Sequence record: NC_041874.1
Origin: Escherichia phage JMPW1
Strand: one strand, 5' to 3'
DNA length: 49,628 nt
Shown: in pieces, positions 61 through 49,628 of the stretch
Layout of the letters: each line of letters starts with the position of its first letter
Position numbering within the stretch: position 1 is the stretch's first letter
Position numbers and translations under genes: made by a program
Notes under the pieces: generated by a model
Seen by the model: the letters and a program-made list of their open reading frames with translations, nothing else
The model's database searches: none
Told to the model about the DNA's origin: nothing

Positions 61-105
61 GGGGATCTAGTGTTGCCCGGTTCGCCTGGTAGTCATCTCC
101 ATTTT

Positions 106-120
106 TAGCAAAAAGTGCTA
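106..120. promoter_or_regulatory. palindrome TAGCAaaaagTGCTA (operator-like, no -10 at the usual distance)
   Basis: Perfect 5+5 inverted repeat. Flanks match the consensus ATAGCACTTTTTGCTAAAA on the minus strand. Lies in the large divergent control region. Confidence 0.5.
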
Positions 121-136
121 TCGATTACACTTTACC

Positions 137-165
137 TTGTCACAGATGTAATATTTGTCTAGAAT
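137..165 (+). promoter_or_regulatory. sigma70-type early promoter candidate
   Basis: TTGTCA (137-142), 17-nt spacer, TAGAAT (160-165); overlaps iteron 147-162. Confidence 0.5.
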
Positions 166-437
166 CGCACTTGTGACAAAATTACACACTGTGACGCCTC
201 TAAATATACATATAGATATATGTATCTATATAATATATATAGTGTTTTCTTTATTTATATATATAGATAATTATATTGTAATAGTTGTGTATAGTTGTCT
301 TACATTGTCTAGCGTACTGTTGGCATATTTCTATCTGCATGTTTATATATACAGTACTTTTTTGAGAGCTATATATTTCTATAGTGACTCTAGACAGCTA
401 GACAAATGTTACACAGCTTAATATCGGCTCGCAGTCA

Positions 438-466
438 TTGACAGCTCTGTATCGCACTGTCACAAT
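438..466 (+). promoter_or_regulatory. sigma70-type early promoter candidate
   Basis: TTGACA (438-443), 17-nt spacer, CACAAT (461-466); 59 nt upstream of the first gene. Confidence 0.4.
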
Positions 467-524
467 GTCAATTGTTGACACATTATGACGCCATTTACAC
501 ACGAATAGACAAAGAGGATATATT

Positions 525-1129: not shown

Positions 1130-1324
1130 ATGGAAACGCAAATTGACGTAGTGGTTGTTCAGCGAGACTCAACTCATGAAAAGGGTCTGTTTAAGAAGGG
1201 AACGGAAATCACGATCGACCTTGAGGATATGGTTGCTTATCACTCTGGACTTACCTGGAACGTGGTGCGCGTAGGCAGCGACTATAAACTCAAAGGCTTT
1301 AACACTTACTTTGCAGAGGCTTAA
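1130..1324 (+). CDS. hypothetical early protein (64 aa)
   Basis: ORF directly downstream of promoter cassette 1056-1098; GAGAAAACGAAG leader. Confidence 0.55.
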   Translation: METQIDVVVVQRDSTHEKGLFKKGTEITIDLEDMVAYHSGLTWNVVRVGSDYKLKGFNTYFAEA

Positions 1325-4030: not shown

Positions 4031-4102
4031 AACAAGGTACGGGAAGTAATTGCAGAGAATAAGCCGTTCGGATATGAAGTAAAAACGATGTGCGTTAAAC
4101 GA

Positions 4103-4145
4103 TAGCACGAATTGCTAAACCTTCCGCAAGGCCATTTGATATAGT
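4103..4145 (+). promoter_or_regulatory. palindrome-promoter cassette
   Basis: TAGCAcgaatTGCTA, 22 nt, TGaTATAGT 4140-4145; hairpin AAGGCCA/TGGCCTT. Confidence 0.6.
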
Positions 4146-4185
4146 GGCCTTATTGAAGCAAGGCAACCAATCAGAGGAATCAGCT

Positions 4186-5722: not shown

Positions 5723-6169
5723 ATGAAACACTTAATTTGCATTGAAACGCCTAACGACCAGTACACCCTGCACGGCATTGGAATGTTCAAAGGTCACTAC
5801 ATGACAGCAAGTATTCATGATTCGCGTTGCGTCAATGGCGATCTGATGATTACGTCAAAAGAAGTAACTCCGTACATTATGCAGAATCTTGGCAATAACG
5901 AATATATGGCCTACGGATGCAATGCGGTGTACAAGCATATCAAGATCAGAAAACGCGTTGTTCGCGCATTCAAGAAAATTGCAATGAAACAATGGAAGAT
6001 GAGCAAGAAAGATGCTGGACGCTGGGCGCGTAACGTTGCAGATTCATACTTCTACCGTAACGGTGAGTCCTGCCACTTCCTTATCGATGAACTTATGGAA
6101 AACTACGGCGGCGACTTCAGTCAGGGTGGCTTTGACGCTTGGGCTGACTACGAGGTCGATTACTGGTAA
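5723..6169 (+). CDS. hypothetical early protein (148 aa)
   Basis: ATG after ACGAGGAAGCACTC. The 5681 start in the ORF track overlaps the -10 hexamer TATGAT 5687-5692. Confidence 0.55.
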   Translation: MKHLICIETPNDQYTLHGIGMFKGHYMTASIHDSRCVNGDLMITSKEVTPYIMQNLGNNEYMAYGCNAVYKHIKIRKRVVRAFKKIAMKQWKMSKKDAGRWARNVADSYFYRNGESCHFLIDELMENYGGDFSQGGFDAWADYEVDYW

Positions 6170-6212
6170 TAGCACGAATTGCTAAAACTTGCTCAAGGGC
6201 ATTTGATAGAAT
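6170..6212 (+). promoter_or_regulatory. palindrome-promoter cassette
   Basis: TAGCAcgaatTGCTA, 22 nt, TGaTAGAAT 6207-6212; hairpin AAGGGCAT/ATGCCCTT. Confidence 0.6.
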
Positions 6213-6252
6213 GCCCTTCGTTGAGTTAAGCAACCAATCAGAGGAATAAATC

Positions 6253-6972: not shown

Positions 6973-7545
6973 ATGAAAACAGCTATCATTTTAAACGGTG
7001 CGCCTGGCGCGGGAAAAGACACTATAGGGTGCATCCTGGCTGACACTTACGATCATGTAGCGCTACGCAGCTTTAAAGCTCCAATGTTTGAGATTGCCCG
7101 AGCAATCCTGGGTGAGACTAATTTTGAGTATTTCATGTTCTTGTATGAGGACCGTCGCTATAAAGAAGAGCCAGCATCAATCCTGAACGGTAAAAGCCCG
7201 CGCCAGTTTATGATCTGGATTAGCGAGGAGGTTATCAAGCCGCAGTTCGGAAATCGCTTCTTCGGTATGCGAGCGGAAAGCAAGGTGAAAGAGTCTCACT
7301 CCCTTTCGGTATTTACTGACGGTGGATTCAAAGACGAAATCTTGCAGATGATTGAAGGTGAAATCCAGGTCAAGCTATGTCGAATCCATCGCAACGGTTG
7401 CAACTTTGACAACGACAGTCGCGACTACATCTATCTTGACGATATGATCGGGGTCAACGGTTATCAGGAATGTGACTTCTTCTCTGTCGAAGGTCATCCA
7501 GAAATTACCGCTCAGCACATAGCCGCCACGTTCATCAACAAATAG
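6973..7545 (+). CDS. P-loop kinase of the phage dNMP-kinase family
   Basis: Walker A GAPGAGKDT; LNGKSP and SPRQFMIWISEE blocks resemble T4 gp1 dNMP kinase (GKDT, LNGKSP). Confidence 0.7.
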   Translation: MKTAIILNGAPGAGKDTIGCILADTYDHVALRSFKAPMFEIARAILGETNFEYFMFLYEDRRYKEEPASILNGKSPRQFMIWISEEVIKPQFGNRFFGMRAESKVKESHSLSVFTDGGFKDEILQMIEGEIQVKLCRIHRNGCNFDNDSRDYIYLDDMIGVNGYQECDFFSVEGHPEITAQHIAATFINK

Positions 7546-7585
7546 CACGAATTGCTAAAACGTCGGTGGGGTGACTTGATATAGT
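7543..7585 (+). promoter_or_regulatory. palindrome-promoter cassette
   Basis: TAGCAcgaatTGCTA, 22 nt, TGaTATAGT 7580-7585; imperfect hairpin GGGGTGAC/GTTACCTC. Confidence 0.6.
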
Positions 7586-7617
7586 TACCTCATCGACAAC
7601 GAAGAGAGAAAATCGAA

Positions 7618-30592: not shown

Positions 30593-30599
30593 TTGTATG

Positions 30600-31116
30600 T
30601 CCTCGTCGTTAGTGTGATTGCATTGTATGTCGCATTTACTTTTATTGCAATAGCACTATTACAATTTTTTCGTGTAACAGGTGTCTATTTTTGTAACCGG
30701 AGCGGGTGTTACAAAATCCACCCCATCCGACCGCAGAGGGATATGATAAAAACTCTATATAATATATATAGATAGATAATATTTAATTTTAGCTTTATAT
30801 ATAATTATTGTTGTGTAACAGTTGTCTATTGTGTAACTGGTGATTTGATTGATTCGTCAAATTTCTATCATATATGTTCAAAATTTAATCAATATGGATT
30901 CTACTTGTAGCTATCTCTGTATTTCTAAGAAAAAGCGGTTACAAGTATTACACAGTAGACATCACATAAAAATAGACTTAAGCCATTGATTCCGTTAATG
31001 CTGGTTGTAACTTGAGCGATATAGACACGCTATTACACACCAATTACATGTATCCGATTGACTAAACGCTGTTAATGGCTATAATGGATTCATCGTAAAC
31101 GAAGGAGATAAACGCA
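30600..31116. repeat. control region B: paralog of region A
   Basis: GTGTAACAGGTGTCTAT 30672-30688; GTGTAACAGTTGTCTATTGTGTAAC 30813-30838; inverted copies 30938-30962 and 31021-31040; 17-mer at 30755-30771; GATTGCA repeats 30613-30650. Confidence 0.7.
31058..31085 (+). promoter_or_regulatory. near-consensus sigma70 promoter of recombination operon
   Basis: TTGACT (31058-31063), 16-nt spacer, TATAAT (31080-31085); 31 nt upstream of ATG 31117. Confidence 0.6.
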
Positions 31117-35320: not shown

Positions 35321-35344
35321 AATAAAAAACCGCCAGAAGGCGGT
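35321..35344 (-). terminator. intrinsic terminator after primase gene
   Basis: Minus strand: ACCGCC ttct GGCGGT then TTTTTTATT. Confidence 0.75.
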
Positions 35345-36279
35345 CAGAGTAGGTCACTTGCTGAGAATAACTTGGCTTGCATTCCTGAGCGGTATCCTCC
35401 AGGATTTGGGATGATTATTTTTAATTGTCGGTCGTCTGCCATGTATAAAGTCTCCTTGTCTGAAGGTTCGCACGCAACCCTTACTTCTCGATCCCCTTTA
35501 TATCTGTATGCAACCATTTCCAGATTCTCAGGAGTGAAGCAGGCCCATACCTCTTGCTTTGTGTGAAATGCAATATGCTGAGCATCAATCCAATTAAGGC
35601 ATAAGTAGATCGCTTTTTCTGTTTTACCAGTCACGGCAACCGAGCAACTTGTGTATTTCTTAGCGTAAAATGACTCCCTACCCTCCTCATCAATAATCAA
35701 AATATTACAAAACTCATCATCAAGACCGTCCTCGTGTACAAGTTGACATGGTATGGTGTGAAATACGCTCTCGCCGCCATCCTCGCGACGTTTTACGCCA
35801 ACGTCGAATGATTCAGTAGGTAGAGATTCAAACATGCTTAGAGGTGTGTTTACGCGCTTCTCTGTGCGCTCCATGACTTTCATCACCGCTTCATGATCTG
35901 CCATCATGACATTGACACCAGATACCGGAGTTCGGCGCGCTTTCTTGTTTGCCTTGACGATGTATTCCTGCGGAACTTTTCCGAGAAATCTTCCCAGGAT
36001 ATTTATGCATTCGCTATACGGCATACCAGTTAATTTCATTAGCCACCCGATCCCGGAGTCGTTACCGCATGAGTTGCAGATCGCACCTCCGTCGCCCGGA
36101 GTGTTCAGGTTATCAGTCCAGCGAAAGCGGTCTTTACCTCCGCAGTTAGGGCAAGGTTGGTGCTTCTTATTAAAAACATCATTCGGCAATCCGCAGATTG
36201 ATTGGAAAGCCTCGCGCCATAACCCCTTCATGTACGGCAAAACGTCCTCTTTCTGAAACATCATAAATTCTTCGTTCAC
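35344..36279 (-). CDS. DNA primase (Zn-ribbon + Toprim type)
   Basis: HQPCPNCGGKDRFRWTD...GGAICNSCG matches the primase Zn-ribbon of T7 gp4 / P4 alpha type. Confidence 0.8.
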   Translation of the reverse strand: MNEEFMMFQKEDVLPYMKGLWREAFQSICGLPNDVFNKKHQPCPNCGGKDRFRWTDNLNTPGDGGAICNSCGNDSGIGWLMKLTGMPYSECINILGRFLGKVPQEYIVKANKKARRTPVSGVNVMMADHEAVMKVMERTEKRVNTPLSMFESLPTESFDVGVKRREDGGESVFHTIPCQLVHEDGLDDEFCNILIIDEEGRESFYAKKYTSCSVAVTGKTEKAIYLCLNWIDAQHIAFHTKQEVWACFTPENLEMVAYRYKGDREVRVACEPSDKETLYMADDRQLKIIIPNPGGYRSGMQAKLFSASDLL

Positions 36280-36340: not shown

Positions 36341-36793
36341 TTAACTAAAAATGCTATTGGTCGTTCCGATATCTTCCTTCTTCACGACGCGCATAAATTT
36401 CTTGTTCTTGCATCGCTTCTCAAGGCACTTGCCGTTACCGTCAAACTTCAGGTCGAATCGCAACCATGCGGCACGAAATCCTTTGCACCCCTGTCGGCGG
36501 TAAGCGCGATGCGCAGCTTCAGCGCCTTGCCATGAAATCATATTTCGATCTTTCCAGCCTTGCACCGTCTGATTGCTAACTTTTAGAGCCTTTGCGCAGG
36601 CCGCAGGGCCGCCGTAATATTCGATAAGAGCATCAAGTCGCGCTCGCAGTCCGGCGCGTGTTTCTTCTTTATGAATATAGAACCCGCAACGCTGTCGAGG
36701 CTTTTTATCTTTACCGCGCCGTGTTCCGTTGTTACCATTGATGTGACGTTTATCGATTTTACCAGTTGATTCTGCGATACGTTGAATACTCAT
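36341..36793 (-). CDS. HTH DNA-binding protein (Cro/YdaS-like) with basic N-terminus
   Basis: ACAKALKVSNQTVQGWKDRNMIS helix-turn-helix; divergent from helicase gene across palindrome 36807-36821; followed by terminator. Confidence 0.6.
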   Translation of the reverse strand: MSIQRIAESTGKIDKRHINGNNGTRRGKDKKPRQRCGFYIHKEETRAGLRARLDALIEYYGGPAACAKALKVSNQTVQGWKDRNMISWQGAEAAHRAYRRQGCKGFRAAWLRFDLKFDGNGKCLEKRCKNKKFMRVVKKEDIGTTNSIFS

Positions 36794-36806
36794 CTTGATT
36801 CTCCTA

Positions 36807-36849
36807 TAGCACTTTTTGCTAAAAACGTTTACTTTATGCCGTGTATTAT
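36807..36849 (+). promoter_or_regulatory. palindrome-promoter cassette (helicase); shared divergent region with HTH gene
   Basis: TAGCActtttTGCTA, 22 nt, TATTAT 36844-36849. Confidence 0.5.
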
Positions 36850-36886
36850 AGCGTAAACGTTACAACGATTCAAAGGATTAATAGCC

Positions 36887-38905
36887 GTGACAATGAACAT
36901 TAAAAAACAGATTGCGTTACTTGGAGAGGACTACATAAAGCGAACTCAGGAGCGATTCACTGTAGGTGAGGTAGTTCCTTATCCGTATCAGGTTGTTGCT
37001 TACGCCGAGATCGCGAAGCGCTTGTCAAATTATGAGCACCCATTCTTCGTTAAAGCGTCTGTATCCGCAGGCAAGACAATTATTTTCGCTATGGTGGCAA
37101 AGCAGTGTCAGAAAATGGGCTTAAAAATGCTTGTCCTGGCTCGACAGGGTGAGATTGTCGATCAGGATAGCGAAGAGATCGACAACTTCGGGGTAACGAA
37201 CTCCATCTTCTCAGCATCGCTTGGAATCAAGTCCTGCTACTTCCCGATCGTGGTTGGCTCTGAGGGTACGGTTGCAAATGGCCTCGACAATGAGTTGGCT
37301 GATTTTGTCCCGCATGTAATTGGGATCGACGAATGTCACCAGGTGGATTGGGAAGACCTTGCGCAAGCCATCGAGGGTAAGGAAACAATGGAACAGATGA
37401 GGGGCGAGAAAGGGAAAATTATCATGGACGGAGATATTCCCCTGATTGGTAATGATGGAAAACCTTTGCTTGGAACTAAGCGTAGTCAGTACACGATCGT
37501 AATCATGGAAATGATGCGGCGCTGTAAAAAGGTTCACGGGCACGATCTTAGAATATTCGGCATGACGGGATCTGAATTTCGTGGCGTAGTTCCTATTCTG
37601 GTAGAGAATCCGAAAGCATTGGGATTCTGGCGTGAGCGAGTAACTGATATCGACACAAACTATCTGATTGAGTTCGGCTCTGTCGTTCCGACTATATTCG
37701 GATCAACAGACGGAGTTCATTACGATCTGGATAAGTTCAAGGCGTCTAGCGAGGACGGAGTGCAGGACTTTACAGAGAAAGACATGAAGGCTATGGAAGA
37801 TGAGATCCTTCATGATAAATCTCTGACTCAGCGAATCATGCAAATGGTCGCCAAAAAGGCAGAAGAACGCAATGCGGTCTTGATTACATGTGCTGGTGTG
37901 CGCCACTGCAAAGAGGCAGCGGCAGCACTTCCTCCGGGAAGCACCTATGCAATTATTACTGGCGACACAGACAACAAATCGCGCAAGAAGATTCTGGACG
38001 ATGTAAGGGCTGGGAAAATTAAATACACCTTTCAGGTTATGGCGCTCACTACTGGCGTTAACGTTCCAAATTGGGATTTCAGTGTCATACTCCGCAAGAT
38101 AGGGTCGCTCACACTATTGATTCAACTTTTGGGTAGGGGTATGCGTCTGCTTAAATCCTGGCAGGTTGCTGAGGGAATGGTTAAGCAGGACCATCTGGTA
38201 TGGGATTTCGCAGGTACGATGGATGAGTTGGGTCAGCTTTATTTCGATCCGATACTTGAGCAGGCGCAATTCCAAAATCGTTTTGAAAACGGCAAAGATC
38301 CGAAAACATGTCCGAAATGCGGTTGCGTAAATAGCTTCTATGCTCGACGATGCGTTAATGTCATTGATGGTGAACGTTGCGATCATTTCTGGACTTCTCA
38401 AATTTGTGAGGACCAGGTTGACGAGCGCACCGGAAAAATCCTTGTTAAAGGATGCGGTGCAGAGAATGACGTTGTGGCCCGAGTCTGTCGCTGTTGCGAT
38501 GTTTCTCTTGTTGATCCTAACCTTAAGTTATCCGGTAAGGCGTACACTAAGAATGACTGGTACGAGGTCAAGAATTTTGAAGTTACGTTAACCAAAAACC
38601 AAAAGGGTGTGATATACAAATACACACTTATTAATGATGAGGGTGACGAGTTCAAGGCGTATGAAAAATTCTTCCCTGAGTCAGACTCTAAGATTTGCGG
38701 TACGCTATGGAAAACGAAAGGAGTATTACCTCACGTATCAGATCCTAAAATGCGCCGCTACTTTATCGGAATGAAGAACGCCATCAAGATCGTGCAGTAC
38801 GCACATCATATTGCTCACCCGGTGCGCGTAACTCATCGTCGCAACCAGAAGAAAGAAGATATTATCTCACGCAAAGACTTCGGTATGGAGGATATCCCGG
38901 AATGA
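36887..38905 (+). CDS. SF2 (DEAH-type) ATP-dependent DNA helicase with C-terminal Zn-fingers
   Basis: Walker A SVSAGKT, DEAH box GIDECH, motif VI LLGRGMR; CPKCGC...RRC and CRCC clusters; GTG start 9 nt after AAGGA. Confidence 0.85.
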   Translation: MTMNIKKQIALLGEDYIKRTQERFTVGEVVPYPYQVVAYAEIAKRLSNYEHPFFVKASVSAGKTIIFAMVAKQCQKMGLKMLVLARQGEIVDQDSEEIDNFGVTNSIFSASLGIKSCYFPIVVGSEGTVANGLDNELADFVPHVIGIDECHQVDWEDLAQAIEGKETMEQMRGEKGKIIMDGDIPLIGNDGKPLLGTKRSQYTIVIMEMMRRCKKVHGHDLRIFGMTGSEFRGVVPILVENPKALGFWRERVTDIDTNYLIEFGSVVPTIFGSTDGVHYDLDKFKASSEDGVQDFTEKDMKAMEDEILHDKSLTQRIMQMVAKKAEERNAVLITCAGVRHCKEAAAALPPGSTYAIITGDTDNKSRKKILDDVRAGKIKYTFQVMALTTGVNVPNWDFSVILRKIGSLTLLIQLLGRGMRLLKSWQVAEGMVKQDHLVWDFAGTMDELGQLYFDPILEQAQFQNRFENGKDPKTCPKCGCVNSFYARRCVNVIDGERCDHFWTSQICEDQVDERTGKILVKGCGAENDVVARVCRCCDVSLVDPNLKLSGKAYTKNDWYEVKNFEVTLTKNQKGVIYKYTLINDEGDEFKAYEKFFPESDSKICGTLWKTKGVLPHVSDPKMRRYFIGMKNAIKIVQYAHHIAHPVRVTHRRNQKKEDIISRKDFGMEDIPE

Positions 38906-39385: not shown

Positions 39386-40099
39386 ATGAAAGACTTTAAT
39401 GATATCGAAACTATCGACTTTGCTGAAACTGGTTGCTCATTCACTCGCGAAGCAATAGCGTTTGGCGGTTATTATCAGGCACTAAAAACTCCAACATGCA
39501 AAGAGATTTCAGGCCGTCGATATAAGGGAACCAATACGCCGGATGTTGTTCGTGATTTATGGTCAACCCCGCGCGAGGTTATTGCGTACCTTGAGGGGCG
39601 TTATGGAAAATACGATCTCGACGCTGCGGCAAGCGAAGAAAATAAAGTTTGCGAGAAGTTTTATTCTCAGGAAACAAACTGCTTAAAACGTTGGTGGGGT
39701 AAAAACAAGCATGTATGGTTAAACCCTCCTTATAGTCGACCTGATATATTCGTCAAGAAGGCGATCGAGCAAATGGAGCACAATAATCAGATTGATATTC
39801 TGTTGCCTGCCGATAATTCTACAGCGTGGTTTACTGAGGCGCGACAGCACGCGGCTGAAATCATCTGGATTGAAGCTGACTTGACTGAGGATATTGACGG
39901 CAACAAGTATGCTCGATCCGGACGACTGGCGTTTATATCCGGTGAAACCGGAAAGGCCGTAGATGGTAATAACAAAGGTTCGGTAATTTTTATCATGCGC
40001 GAACTTAAAGATGGTGAGACGCAGCAAACTCACTATATCCCAATCACAAGCATTTTCCCTTCGGTGAAAAACAAGCGCGCAAAAGTGAGGAAAGTATGA
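39386..40099 (+). CDS. dam: DNA N6-adenine methyltransferase (phage Dam family)
   Basis: WSTPREV...DLDAAAS...WLNPPYS (NPPY catalytic motif). Confidence 0.85.
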   Translation: MKDFNDIETIDFAETGCSFTREAIAFGGYYQALKTPTCKEISGRRYKGTNTPDVVRDLWSTPREVIAYLEGRYGKYDLDAAASEENKVCEKFYSQETNCLKRWWGKNKHVWLNPPYSRPDIFVKKAIEQMEHNNQIDILLPADNSTAWFTEARQHAAEIIWIEADLTEDIDGNKYARSGRLAFISGETGKAVDGNNKGSVIFIMRELKDGETQQTHYIPITSIFPSVKNKRAKVRKV

Positions 40100-44331: not shown

Positions 44332-45900
44332 TTAACCCATCAGTCGAGGGTTGATGAAAACAATATCATCAATCCGGCAAGTGTAGTTCATCTCTTCGAG
44401 CGTGATCAGCAGGCTGTCGATTCGCTCAGATACTTTCTGTTGACCGTTGAACGGCGTAACGTTCCGGCACTTTGCAACGATGCTATGAATAGGTGCGCGG
44501 CCTTTGTTCTTCTTCGCGATCTCAGTGATAACATCAATCAGCTTACGAGATTCAGCCTCATCACCTGCATACCCGGCAGCGCTGGCAGATGACAGGTAAG
44601 TCCTGGAAAGCTCATTGAAGATCATGATCGCTTCCTGCATTGTTTCAAGGTCAATCTCACGATTAGATCGGTTCGGTGATTCACCCTCCCAATTCTTGAT
44701 CGTGTGAAGAACTGAAGCAATGCGCAAAGCGTGCTTATCGAACTTACCGAGATGACCGCGTAGCATTGAGTGAGAGTATTTGCCCCCGGCGGCGAAATCA
44801 GGCTCCATCGCCTGGCGAGCAAGGTTTAATTCACGCATAGCGTTACGGCTTACAGAGAGAACGACGTTGTCCTCCTTCATAATGTTGTGCACGAGTCTGT
44901 AATATTTGCTAACCAGTCCGCGATCTACTTCCTTATACAGCGCATCACCATTTTCATCGCAAAGAATACGAGTACCTAAAAGCGGTTCCTCTCGAACCAG
45001 GAGGAAACGCTCAGATACACCGATACCGCGCTGGCCTGCGTCCATGATACCCTTGATTGTTTCATCCTGCGCAATGACGCAGATCGAACCGACCGGGCAA
45101 AGAGATAAGTTGTTGTCCTGATTTGAACGCGCGACCTCCATATGGTTTTTATCCCACGCCTTAAGAATAAGCTCGCTGTTTGATTTCTTATCAGAACCGC
45201 CATAAGTCAGACCAAGCAATGTATTGATTGCCGTTGCTTCATCAGATATTACGGAAAAGTGGCCTTGAACAGCCGCAACTTTCGCAAGACCTTCAGGTGT
45301 AGGATCTGATACCGCGAAAACAATATCAGCCATCTTCTTGATCTTTTCTTCCAGTTTTTCCTTGTCTTCGTACAGAGCCGCCGTCGTGTTACCCTTTGGA
45401 TCGTTTTTTATTTCTTTCTCGACCTGACGTAGCTGACTGGTTAAACGTATGCGCTCCTTTTTGCGCTCTTCATTCAGTCGCTGAATCTCCGCACGCATAG
45501 GTGTAATCGCCGCTGAGTTAATAGCGGACTTACCTGTTGATGGTGGCTGGCTGATTACCATGTAAAGCGCGGTCGGCTGTTCTTCGCCGTGATATTGCAC
45601 CCAAAACTTCCCGAGCATAGCGGCTGAGATGCACCCAATGAAATGAGCGTACGCAGACGAAACAGGGAACTGTACAGACTCAGCCTTTGCCTTTGCATAT
45701 TCGAATACCAGGTTATCGCCACCTAACGAAATCAGCGGGAACTTATCGTTTCCACTGTTGATATCGATCGGATCTTGCCAAAACGAAACTGAATCCCCAT
45801 AGCTGTTTTCACGAATTGCGATCGACACCGGATTAACTCCAGTGCTATTTGCGATCTCAATAATCTGTTGGTAATTCAATTTTGGCTTAATATTAAACAT
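44332..45900 (-). CDS. DUF3987-type replicative helicase-like P-loop protein
   Basis: P-loop-like SQPPSTGKSA; overall YfjI/DUF3987 look; AAGGAG SD before ATG 45900. The longer 45963 start in the ORF track runs into the promoter cassette. Confidence 0.7.
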   Translation of the reverse strand: MFNIKPKLNYQQIIEIANSTGVNPVSIAIRENSYGDSVSFWQDPIDINSGNDKFPLISLGGDNLVFEYAKAKAESVQFPVSSAYAHFIGCISAAMLGKFWVQYHGEEQPTALYMVISQPPSTGKSAINSAAITPMRAEIQRLNEERKKERIRLTSQLRQVEKEIKNDPKGNTTAALYEDKEKLEEKIKKMADIVFAVSDPTPEGLAKVAAVQGHFSVISDEATAINTLLGLTYGGSDKKSNSELILKAWDKNHMEVARSNQDNNLSLCPVGSICVIAQDETIKGIMDAGQRGIGVSERFLLVREEPLLGTRILCDENGDALYKEVDRGLVSKYYRLVHNIMKEDNVVLSVSRNAMRELNLARQAMEPDFAAGGKYSHSMLRGHLGKFDKHALRIASVLHTIKNWEGESPNRSNREIDLETMQEAIMIFNELSRTYLSSASAAGYAGDEAESRKLIDVITEIAKKNKGRAPIHSIVAKCRNVTPFNGQQKVSERIDSLLITLEEMNYTCRIDDIVFINPRLMG

Positions 45901-45929
45901 CACAATAAACTCCTTAGTTGACGGTGTGA

Positions 45930-45972
45930 ATGATACACCGCCAATGGTACACGCGTTTTGCAAAAAGTGCTA
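45930..45972 (-). promoter_or_regulatory. palindrome-promoter cassette
   Basis: Minus strand: TAGCActtttTGCAA, 22 nt, TATCAT (45935-45930); hairpin GGTGT/ACACC around the -10. Confidence 0.5.
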
Positions 45973-48492: not shown

Positions 48493-48525
48493 TTTGTTTT
48501 TCCTCAATCTCGTTTCGATGAGGTA

Positions 48526-48568
48526 ATTATGCCAAATCGCACCGATCGAGTTTTAACAAAAAGTGCTA
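48526..48568 (-). promoter_or_regulatory. palindrome-promoter cassette
   Basis: Minus strand: TAGCActtttTGTTA, 22 nt, TGgCATAAT (48531-48526). The palindrome lies inside the last codons of the C5-MTase gene. Confidence 0.55.
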
Positions 48569-49257
48569 TTTGCGATCGCTTTGAAAAATCCACGAGGAGA
48601 TAAGGAACGTATCAGCTTCGTTTTGGCAGACTTGCCGCCCAGCTTGTTTTGCTGTGCAGAGTACCCGTCATGCAGGTTTACAGGCTTCCTTTCTGGCATG
48701 ACAAAGTCGTCCGAAGTCCAAAGACAAGTTTTCTTCGGGTAAGCATCGCGCGGCGCAATATACATCGGGAACCAGGGGTGTGCGTCATTCTCAGGAAGAT
48801 AGCCGCCATACTCCCAGGGATTGAAAGTGTGGTCAGCCTTTCGCCAGGCTGATGACAGGACGCTAACCGGATTCTCAATGATGTAAGTCACACCCAGGCT
48901 ATCACCGATGTTCGCGGCAATCCGGGCGGTGGCAACAGCTTTCTCCTGGAATAGCGGATCACGTTTACGCTTGCTGGCAAAGTGTCGAGCACCACTAACG
49001 GCCAGGTCAGTGCACGGCGGGAAGGCCATAATGAAATCCGGCTTGCCATACACACCCGCGATCGCATCACGTTCGAACGTTTCATCAATGAACACGTTCA
49101 CATACTCAATGTTGGGATGCTCTACCCGGGCATTGTACTTTGCATAATCTCCGTGATCGGCTCCGTCAAAGTTGAAGCACATCACTTTATGACCTTGCTT
49201 TGCCAGTTCATGACCAGCCAGGCCCGAGCCGTCGAATAGTGACCAGATTAATTTCAT
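48553..49257 (-). CDS. DNA (cytosine-5)-methyltransferase, compact form
   Basis: Motif I LFDGSG, motif IV FPPCTDLAVSG (PC), motif VI IIENPV. The 3' end encodes palindrome 48554-48568. Confidence 0.8.
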   Translation of the reverse strand: MKLIWSLFDGSGLAGHELAKQGHKVMCFNFDGADHGDYAKYNARVEHPNIEYVNVFIDETFERDAIAGVYGKPDFIMAFPPCTDLAVSGARHFASKRKRDPLFQEKAVATARIAANIGDSLGVTYIIENPVSVLSSAWRKADHTFNPWEYGGYLPENDAHPWFPMYIAPRDAYPKKTCLWTSDDFVMPERKPVNLHDGYSAQQNKLGGKSAKTKLIRSLSPRGFFKAIANSTFC

Positions 49258-49466: not shown

Positions 49467-49498
49467 TGCCTGAGTCCTCTGATTGGTTGATGTGATGA

Positions 49499-49542
49499 AT
49501 CATACCCTGCCGACCTGGCTGAGTCGTTAGCAAAAAATGCTA
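49499..49542 (-). promoter_or_regulatory. palindrome-promoter cassette (first of leftward operon)
   Basis: Minus strand: TAGCAtttttTGCTA, 23 nt, TATGAT (49504-49499); AACCAATCAGAGGA leader. Confidence 0.5.
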
Positions 49543-49628
49543 TTCCAATAATTGCTCATTATTCCATCAATAGCGGAATAGGTGGAATAATTCTGATTGC
49601 GATTGATTGCAAATGATGAAACGTGATT

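Follow-up and report, generated by a model that had tools for sequence, protein, structure and literature searches.

Paired iteron modules around AT-rich cores in a T1-like phage as candidate replication origins

The genome and its two large non-coding regions

The sequence of Escherichia phage JMPW1 (NC_041874.1; 49,628 bp, called the window below) is a complete T1-like phage genome (Tunavirus, Drexlerviridae), in which two non-coding regions, A and B, carry arrays of short repeats (iterons) around an AT-rich core. Over the stretches tested, the window is 100% identical to vB_EcoS_IME167 and phi2013, and it is 78-95% identical to T1, one of the seven classical T phages. Its position 1 is also position 1 in the T1 records, so region A straddles the conventional genome end; one T1 record annotates the first 2,800 bp as a terminal repeat. 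Region A (49467-49628 plus 1-524) measures 686 bp and region B (30593-31116) 524 bp, and they are the two largest gaps, the third being 315 bp, in the gene annotation of the near-identical record phi2013. An earlier note on this DNA had called them the only large non-coding tracts, and had read them as two copies of a control module in which iterons surround an AT-rich core, serving either as origins or as operators. The replication genes encoded elsewhere in the genome comprise a primase, a Cro-like helix-turn-helix (HTH) protein, an SF2 helicase (36887-38905), a VRR-NUC nuclease, Dam, and a DUF3987 protein.

The two regions resemble each other. A gapped comparison places 124-295 of A and 30657-30831 of B in collinear order, with 65% identity over 184 columns, and a 17-mer that had been noticed in both AT-rich parts extends to an identical 18-mer, TCTATATAATATATATAG (225-242 and 30754-30771). 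Five shared features had been listed as occurring in the same order in A and B; two of these belong to unrelated elements described at the end of this paper. Both modules are non-coding: the open reading frames at 155-421 and 30593-30775 and a 46-aa gene annotated in B of T1 were rejected as coding for lack of conservation in relatives. When the whole window was scanned against Rfam at gathering thresholds, no RNA family was found. The cumulative GC skew has its minimum at region A, but is uninformative for mapping an origin because the skew tracks gene orientation. The sequence GATC occurs once in the 1,210 bp of A and B, against 5.9 expected from the 243 sites genome-wide; this depletion exists despite the phage having its own Dam methylase gene (39386-40099).

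Iteron arrays and AT-rich cores

Both regions contain a family of hexamers (TGTAAC, TGTAAT, TGTTAC, TGTCTA, TGTGTA, and others) in arrays of two to four units, which have the same orientation within an array and follow each other at 8-11 bp, or one helical turn. Eight arrays were found, four per region (Table 1), of which six have three hexamers, one has four, and one has two. They lie where the earlier note had placed copies of a 17-bp iteron, which corresponds to two adjacent members of the hexamer family. Arrays of at least three phased hexamers are confined to A and B, with none elsewhere in the 49.6 kb. The hexamer words are enriched 15-40-fold in the two regions: TGTCTA/TAGACA has 9 copies there and 6 in the remaining 48.4 kb (Poisson P 2e-13), while TGTGTAA/TTACACA has 7 copies there and 2 elsewhere (P 7e-13), these P values being indicative only because the hexamer set and the tested words were chosen after inspection. 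A count of more than 14 TGTNACA heptamers had been given previously; the exact copies number 7 in A and B, and 11 in the whole genome.

In T1, ISF002, and ADB-2, three exact tandem 9-bp units of CGATTAACA replace array A3 (window 386-415; T1 loci L060 and L064), and TGTTAA is found in region A in place of the TGTCTA of the window, while region B retains TGTAAC-type hexamers. In view of these word changes, either the hexamer family is degenerate (TGTNW...) or drift between A and B is possible within a genus.

The cores between the arrays are exceptional for the genome. In 80-bp windows, the stability of the duplex is -72.2 kcal/mol for the core of A and -76.7 kcal/mol for that of B. The window that ranks third is at -89.0, and the genome average is -108.1 (standard deviation 5.9); the cores are 6.1 and 5.3 standard deviations less stable than this average, respectively. 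The core-flanking arrays 1 and 2 are oriented alike, and the inverted arrays 3 and 4 sit 150-270 bp further right. Measured from the core centre, the arrays of A are at -107/-98/-89, +32..+61, and +146..+165, and those of B are at -102/-93/-83, +37..+57, and +163..+181. In the related phage TLS, the corresponding offsets are -124/-114/-104, +20/+30/+39, and +168..+187 for A, and -103/-93/-83, +30/+41/+50, and +146..+162 for B. The positions in A can be nearly superimposed on those in B, as can the positions in the window on those in TLS.

The same regularity is not seen with respect to promoters. The three sigma70-like sites named in the earlier note are present as placed, with 10/12, 10/12, and 11/12 matches, and direct reading of the alignment shows that T1, ISF002, and ADB-2 retain a promoter-like pair at the position of 137-165 despite sequence change. 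No promoter-like site was found near array B1 or upstream of the B core, and array 4 is downstream of the promoter-like site in A but upstream of it in B. The geometry of the arrays is anchored to the AT core rather than to the promoters.

Table 1. Coordinates of the module features, candidate proteins, and one neighbouring repeat in the window
Feature	Coordinates	Strand	Description
Array A1	138..161	+	TGTCAC, TGTAAT, TGTCTA, 9 bp apart; ~100 bp left of core centre; within spacer of promoter-like site
Array A2	277..311	+	TGTAAT, TGTGTA, TGTCTT, TGTCTA, 9-10 bp apart; abuts core
Array A3	391..413	-	Three inverted hexamers, TAGACA, TAGACA, GTTACA
Array A4	496..511	-	Two inverted hexamers, TACACA, TAGACA; directly before ribosome-binding site of gene 525-1040
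Array B1	30673..30697	+	TGTAAC, TGTCTA, TGTAAC, 9-10 bp apart; core offset as A1
Array B2	30812..30837	+	TGTAAC, TGTCTA, TGTAAC; abuts core
Array B3	30938..30961	-	Three inverted hexamers, GTTACA, ATTACA/TACACA, TAGACA
Array B4	31022..31048	-	Three inverted hexamers; ends 10 bp upstream of exoVIII promoter -35
AT core of A	204..283	.	89% AT; least stable 80-bp duplex in genome; candidate DNA-unwinding element
AT core of B	30741..30820	.	86% AT; second least stable 80-bp duplex in genome
Sigma70-like site	137..165	+	TTGTCA-17-TAGAAT; points into AT core of A, 40 bp downstream
Sigma70-like site	438..466	+	TTGACA-17-CACAAT with TG; upstream of first rightward gene
Promoter-like site	31058..31085	+	TTGACT-16-TATAAT; for exoVIII-erf-ssb operon; family-conserved
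Primase	35344..36279	-	Primase-helicase-type zinc ribbon
Cro-like HTH protein	36341..36793	-	150 aa; between primase and SF2 helicase genes; candidate genus-specific iteron binder
DUF3987 protein	44335..45900	-	522-aa form; predicted MCM-like AAA+ helicase with C-terminal winged helix (fold search; PMC4889955); candidate helicase for the modules
TAGCA palindrome	103..121	-	Exact copy (0 mismatches) of 21-nt repeat

Conservation and co-variation in Drexlerviridae

Related genomes were examined for the modules, and the architecture proved to be kept family-wide. It is found in four other genomes of Drexlerviridae, with genus-specific repeats that are common to both regions of a genome. Upstream of exoVIII, 10 of 11 profiled Drexlerviridae loci have ~450-520 bp of non-coding DNA with an AT peak of 82-88% at a similar offset, while the peak of the eleventh (L047) reaches only 76%; exoVIII identity among the profiled loci is 42% upward. 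An alignment of 10 of the 11 loci with the window has a conserved TTGACT...TATAAT beside exoVIII and invariant TGT triplets ~10 bp apart. A matching module is found at the genome end in other genera.

The repeats themselves co-vary between the two regions, with iteron class being confounded with phylogeny. Ec_L1 (Eclunavirus) has the iteron CGGAGGAT, of which GGAGGAT occurs in 16 copies in A and B and 3 copies in 42.8 kb elsewhere (P 3e-30); its region B begins with five tandem 10-11-bp units, which are ATCCTCCG-type iterons. F20 (Webervirus) has GTAAGAT, with 14 copies in A and B and 5 in 44.6 kb elsewhere (P 1e-24). TLS has TGTTCAC/TGTTCCA (TGTTCC) and SRT8 has TGTAAT/TGTCTA in both regions. 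Since T1 and TLS both infect E. coli and their words differ, the protein that reads the iterons is expected to be phage-encoded and is unlikely to be a host protein. Within-genome alignments of A with B score 57 in the window, 69 in TLS, and 85 in F20, and in each case exceed every cross-genus score for A-A or B-B (23-48), which indicates concerted evolution of the two regions. The earlier reading of A and B as a duplicated iteron module is supported, and is much reinforced by this co-variation and by the conservation in the family.

Conservation within Tunavirus is also high. Region B is 93-98% identical, and its core 98-99%, while the four-fold degenerate sites of the adjacent exoVIII are 66-97% identical over 12 loci and below 89% in 11 of them; region B is under purifying selection, being far more conserved than neighbouring silent sites. 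The core of region A is nearly invariant, even in T1, ISF002, and ADB-2, where the flanks have diverged.

Relative to T1, the exoVIII-erf-ssb operon is inverted in Ec_L1 (Eclunavirus; L089 7249-7822) and F20 (Webervirus; L090 272-766), and region B has moved along with it to a place beside the primase gene, so B belongs to the 5' end of this operon. Region B is flanked in Ec_L1 by exoVIII and primase, both leftward, and in F20 by co-oriented primase and exoVIII genes. The divergent transcription previously ascribed to the regions is therefore not a family trait for B. In T1 and TLS, A and B are in direct orientation to each other; in Ec_L1 and F20 they are inverted.

Candidate functions of the modules

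These comparisons lead us to regard A and B as two co-evolving copies of one cis-acting module of ~400-450 bp, and to predict with high confidence that they are arrays of phage-protein binding sites that surround a conserved core prone to unwinding. Very probably the binder is sequence-specific and encoded by the phage, because the iterons are genus-specific and shared by the two regions, A and B resemble each other, and B is conserved. The reading preferred here, with a probability of about 0.5, is that A and B are iteron-type replication origins of T1-like phages. A role in replication is favoured because the geometry is anchored to the core, the architecture is like that of iteron origins, the phage encodes a helicase and a primase, and the origin of this family is undescribed. 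If A and B are origins, then the hexamer arrays would be the binding sites of a genus-specific DNA-binding protein encoded by the phage, for which the Cro-like HTH protein is the best candidate. Cooperative binding on one helix face and on both sides of the core would distort and melt the AT-rich DNA, the MCM-like DUF3987 helicase would then be loaded at the melted core, and the phage primase would start DNA synthesis. The modules may act as two independent origins, or as an origin and an auxiliary cis site in the manner of ori and crr of P4.

The candidate helicase and the candidate binder differ in how well they suit the part of iteron reader. The DUF3987 protein is predicted to have an MCM-like helicase fold, and has no match in the PDB by sequence. 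Its longest open reading frame (44332-45963, minus strand) encodes 543 aa from a TTG start, which is 21 codons longer than the 522-aa form of all database homologues, and the true start is probably the ATG at 45900. A model in which this helicase reads the iterons, as Rep does in pathogenicity islands, is not supported: the winged helix and the N-terminus are only moderately variable, not hypervariable, across iteron classes, and the winged helix has an acidic putative recognition helix, which makes the helicase an unlikely reader. The HTH protein, in comparison, is most variable where a reader of diverging specificity would be expected to be. Over 50 distinct sequences, residues 73-80, at the start of the recognition helix, form the entropy maximum (1.46 bits, compared with 0.75-0.93 in regions 1-50 and 81-135), and W80, R83, and M85-I86-S87 are invariant. 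This pattern is a lead and not a result. The HTH protein has no match in the PDB by sequence.

The first gene to the right of A (525-1040) encodes a genus-specific 171-aa protein, for which a model with a predicted local distance difference test (pLDDT) score of 82.5 has weak structural matches only (R3H 6.4, Alba 5.6, RepE 5.2). Pfam and PHROGs scans of 20 flanking early proteins found no DNA-binding domain. A protein like P4 alpha (D5/SF3) was not detected, the helicases found being SF2 and DUF3987, and no O-like domain was found among the phage proteins (cf. PMC11447400).

Several observations count against the origin reading. The arrays that flank the core point the same way, while in the pathogenicity islands of Staphylococcus aureus (SaPIs) the rule is that they are opposed. 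No initiator gene adjoins either module, and the helicase gene, whose product probably does not read the iterons itself, is separated from A by 3.5 kb and from B by 13 kb. Variants of the HTH recognition helix and iteron classes do not match cleanly: SIQVVQQW occurs with ATCTTAC iterons in Webervirus, and SQQVVNQW with GAGAACA-type iterons in some TLS-like phages, which is why the HTH protein stays a lead as reader. Co-variation alone cannot name the binder, because every candidate protein co-varies with phylogeny. Finally, both modules head early operons, with A1 in a promoter-like spacer and B4 abutting a -35 hexamer, an arrangement that suits operators.

The main and serious alternative, though the less likely one, is accordingly that the arrays are operators for a phage regulator, such as the Cro-like HTH protein, that times or shuts off the early operons in both directions from A and the exoVIII-erf-ssb operon at B, with the core serving as a hub of divergent promoters or as DNA of a curved or UP-like kind. 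The sigma70-like sites at 137-165, 438-466, and 31058-31085 agree with this, as do the filling of the first spacer by A1, where a promoter-like pair is kept in T1, ISF002, and ADB-2, the 10 bp that separate B4 from the -35 of a family-conserved promoter, the constant association of B with the exoVIII operon, and the classification of the HTH protein by PHROGs under transcriptional regulators. Operators would not be expected, however, to hold fixed positions relative to the AT core instead of the promoters, and B1 has no promoter-like site nearby while A4 is downstream of its own. A total of 11-13 sites over ~400 bp around an 80-bp block of 86-89% AT would be unusual for an operator region, and the core sequence itself is nearly invariant. 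An autoregulating repressor would also be expected to have an iteron in the divergent promoter region beside its gene (36794-36886), and there is none beside the HTH gene. Origin and operator roles are not mutually exclusive; both of the alternatives proposed in the earlier note are still live, and the evidence leans to an origin, a replication function being suggested by analogy.

A more specific form of the origin reading is rather unlikely when all of its parts are taken jointly. It would make the modules an unrecognised two-module system of iterons and DNA-unwinding elements (DUEs), with A by pac and B with exoVIII-erf-ssb, either bipartite or specific to stages (early theta replication versus recombination-coupled replication). 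The iterons would be read by the HTH protein, a small, Cro-like protein unrelated to known initiators, which would recruit an MCM-like SF6 helicase that does not itself recognise the origin.

The permanent linkage of B to exoVIII-erf-ssb could also mean that the modules are dual-purpose nucleoprotein sites, where one protein bound to both would couple recombination-dependent replication or concatemer formation to the recombination operon; they would then be loading or synapsis sites and not classical origins. T1 reportedly needs phage recombination functions to form concatemers, A is part of the 2.8-kb terminal redundancy and lies next to a probable pac tract, and A and B evolve in concert. 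This proposal is nevertheless improbable, as the relative orientation of A and B is not conserved (direct in T1/TLS and inverted in Ec_L1/F20), the longest identical stretch of 18 bp is too short for efficient homologous exchange, and no site architecture of a recombinase type was seen.

Binding of the repeats by a host factor such as DnaA is very improbable: TTACACA does equal positions 3-9 of the DnaA box TTWTNCACA, and A and B contain eight one-mismatch boxes where 2.3 are expected by length, but these follow from the iteron word itself, a perfect box is absent from both regions, the depletion of GATC is the reverse of oriC, and genera with unrelated words (CGGAGGAT, GTAAGAT, TGTTCAC), including TLS in the same host species, have the same architecture. 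Beyond the one-mismatch DnaA boxes, DnaA, IHF, and Chi sites have no meaningful enrichment in A and B. A pac site or terminase recognition site was rejected for the modules, the T1 terminus being in a separate repeat tract left of the iterons and B being internal.

Comparison with known systems

The modules had been thought to match no known element, which was too strong, since the origins of SaPIs are a close architectural precedent (PMC9371898). In these, a central AT-rich region divides 6-12 penta- or hexamer iterons, which an MCM-like self-loading helicase binds via a winged helix (PMC9371898). The phage modules likewise have short iterons on both sides of an AT-rich region, with iteron sequences that vary among related elements, and both kinds of element encode an MCM-like helicase with a C-terminal winged helix (predicted for the phage). 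The differences are considerable. The SaPI origin is present in a single copy immediately downstream of rep, with the iterons flanking the AT region opposed in direction, whereas the two phage copies are separated by 19-30 kb, neither is closer than 3.5 kb to the helicase gene, and the arrays on the two sides of the core are co-oriented. The hexamers of the phage are in helically phased triplets and the winged helix of its helicase is not hypervariable, for which reason a separate HTH protein is the better candidate reader.

A second close precedent is provided by the satellite phage P4, where ori and crr, two separated cis regions ~4.5 kb apart with the same short iteron, both serve replication and are bound by the alpha primase-helicase, an SF3 enzyme with its own origin-binding domain. 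The phage also has two separated regions with the same iteron, which may be jointly required in cis or may act independently. The word TGTTCAC of the TLS group resembles the P4 type I iteron TGTTCACC, a resemblance that may be due to chance. In lambda, the origin consists of four 19-bp iterons and an AT-rich tract within the O gene, bound by the O protein. It is similar in having iterons by an AT-rich unwinding region and in that the specificity of origin and initiator varies among related phages; however, the iterons of lambda form a single block to one side of the AT tract, inside the O gene, while the phage modules are non-coding and the phage has no O-like gene. The origins oriF and oriG of T4 and the primary origin of T7 combine a promoter with a DUE and do not have iteron arrays. 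The promoter-like site at 137-165 in region A, which points into the core, is reminiscent of these, but region B has no such site upstream of its core. The operator arrays of switch regions, such as OR/OL of lambda and A2b-A2c-A3 of phi29 (p4/p6), overlap promoters in a fixed register and have no large invariant AT core. A divergent early control region with several binding sites for a phage regulator (putative here) would be a common feature, while the register in the phage modules is fixed to the core.

Origins that combine iterons with a DUE are known already, and ori and crr of P4 are a precedent for the duplication of iteron regions. What appears to be undescribed so far is the presence of two co-evolving modules across the family, the fixed association of one of them with a recombination operon, and the geometry of the triplet arrays. 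Two recent papers found no origin or iterons in T1-like phages (PMC11447400, PMC7718038), and a mapped origin or transcriptome for the T1 family was not found in the literature. The module pair is the best candidate so far for the unmapped T1-type origins, and with precise candidate origins of ~450 bp and defined, putative binding words in at least four genera, the question becomes directly testable. If the reading is true, then this would be the first origin system defined for Drexlerviridae, and an MCM-like helicase of a bacterial virus would work with origin modules that are duplicated and co-evolve. Genus-specific iterons would account for incompatibility and specificity in the replication of T1-like phages and would help in the engineering of these phages, which are both common contaminants and therapeutic phages.

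Neighbouring elements

Two of the features that had been assigned to the module belong elsewhere. The TAGCA palindrome in region A is one of 26 dispersed copies (1.8 expected) of the published, family-wide 21-nt intergenic repeat of T1 and TLS, ATAGCACnnnTTGnTAAAA or aaATAGCACnnnTTGnTAAAA, whose function was left open (PMC11447400); region B has only a partial copy. In 17 of the 26 copies, a -10-like hexamer (consensus TATAGT, often with an upstream TG) follows TTGNTA at exactly 23 bp, and in two more it follows at 24 bp; examples are at 1055-1110, 1794-1850, 4102-4155, 6169-6220, 7542-7600, and 48500-48569 (minus strand). This spacing is too long for a normal sigma70 -35 contact. When typical copies were folded, the hexamer was in the loop or the 3' arm of a hairpin, the stem of which varies in sequence while its pairing stays. 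The unit may be a class of activator-dependent promoter or an RNA element. The copy at 103-121 is atypical in being without the usual downstream hexamer and hairpin; it lies in a 65-bp block (64-128) that is almost invariant in Tunavirus, even where the flanks have diverged.

The shared GATTGCA/ATTGCAAT repeats are weak as a module feature, with 3 copies in A, 2 in B, and 10 elsewhere; those in A are part of a separate terminus tract and those in B coincide with a promoter-like site for cor. The terminus tract makes up the left part of region A (49540-49628 plus 1-60). Its inverted repeats, two each of TATTCC and GGAATA, precede ~100 bp rich in GATTG/TTGCA, a pattern that recurs in SRT8 (L073 230-370) and F20 (L083 590-760). 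Inside this tract falls coordinate 1 of the T1 records, where the 2.8-kb terminal repeat has its left end; the tract is probably the pac or small-terminase recognition tract.

The third-largest gap without an annotated gene in phi2013 (315 bp) corresponds to 1798-2112; T1 annotates a 231-bp gene (1532-1762) between neighbours homologous to those of this gap. The second rightward early gene (1130-1324, plus strand) matches Pfam PF25180, "phage antiviral trigger protein Gp54" (E 5e-36).

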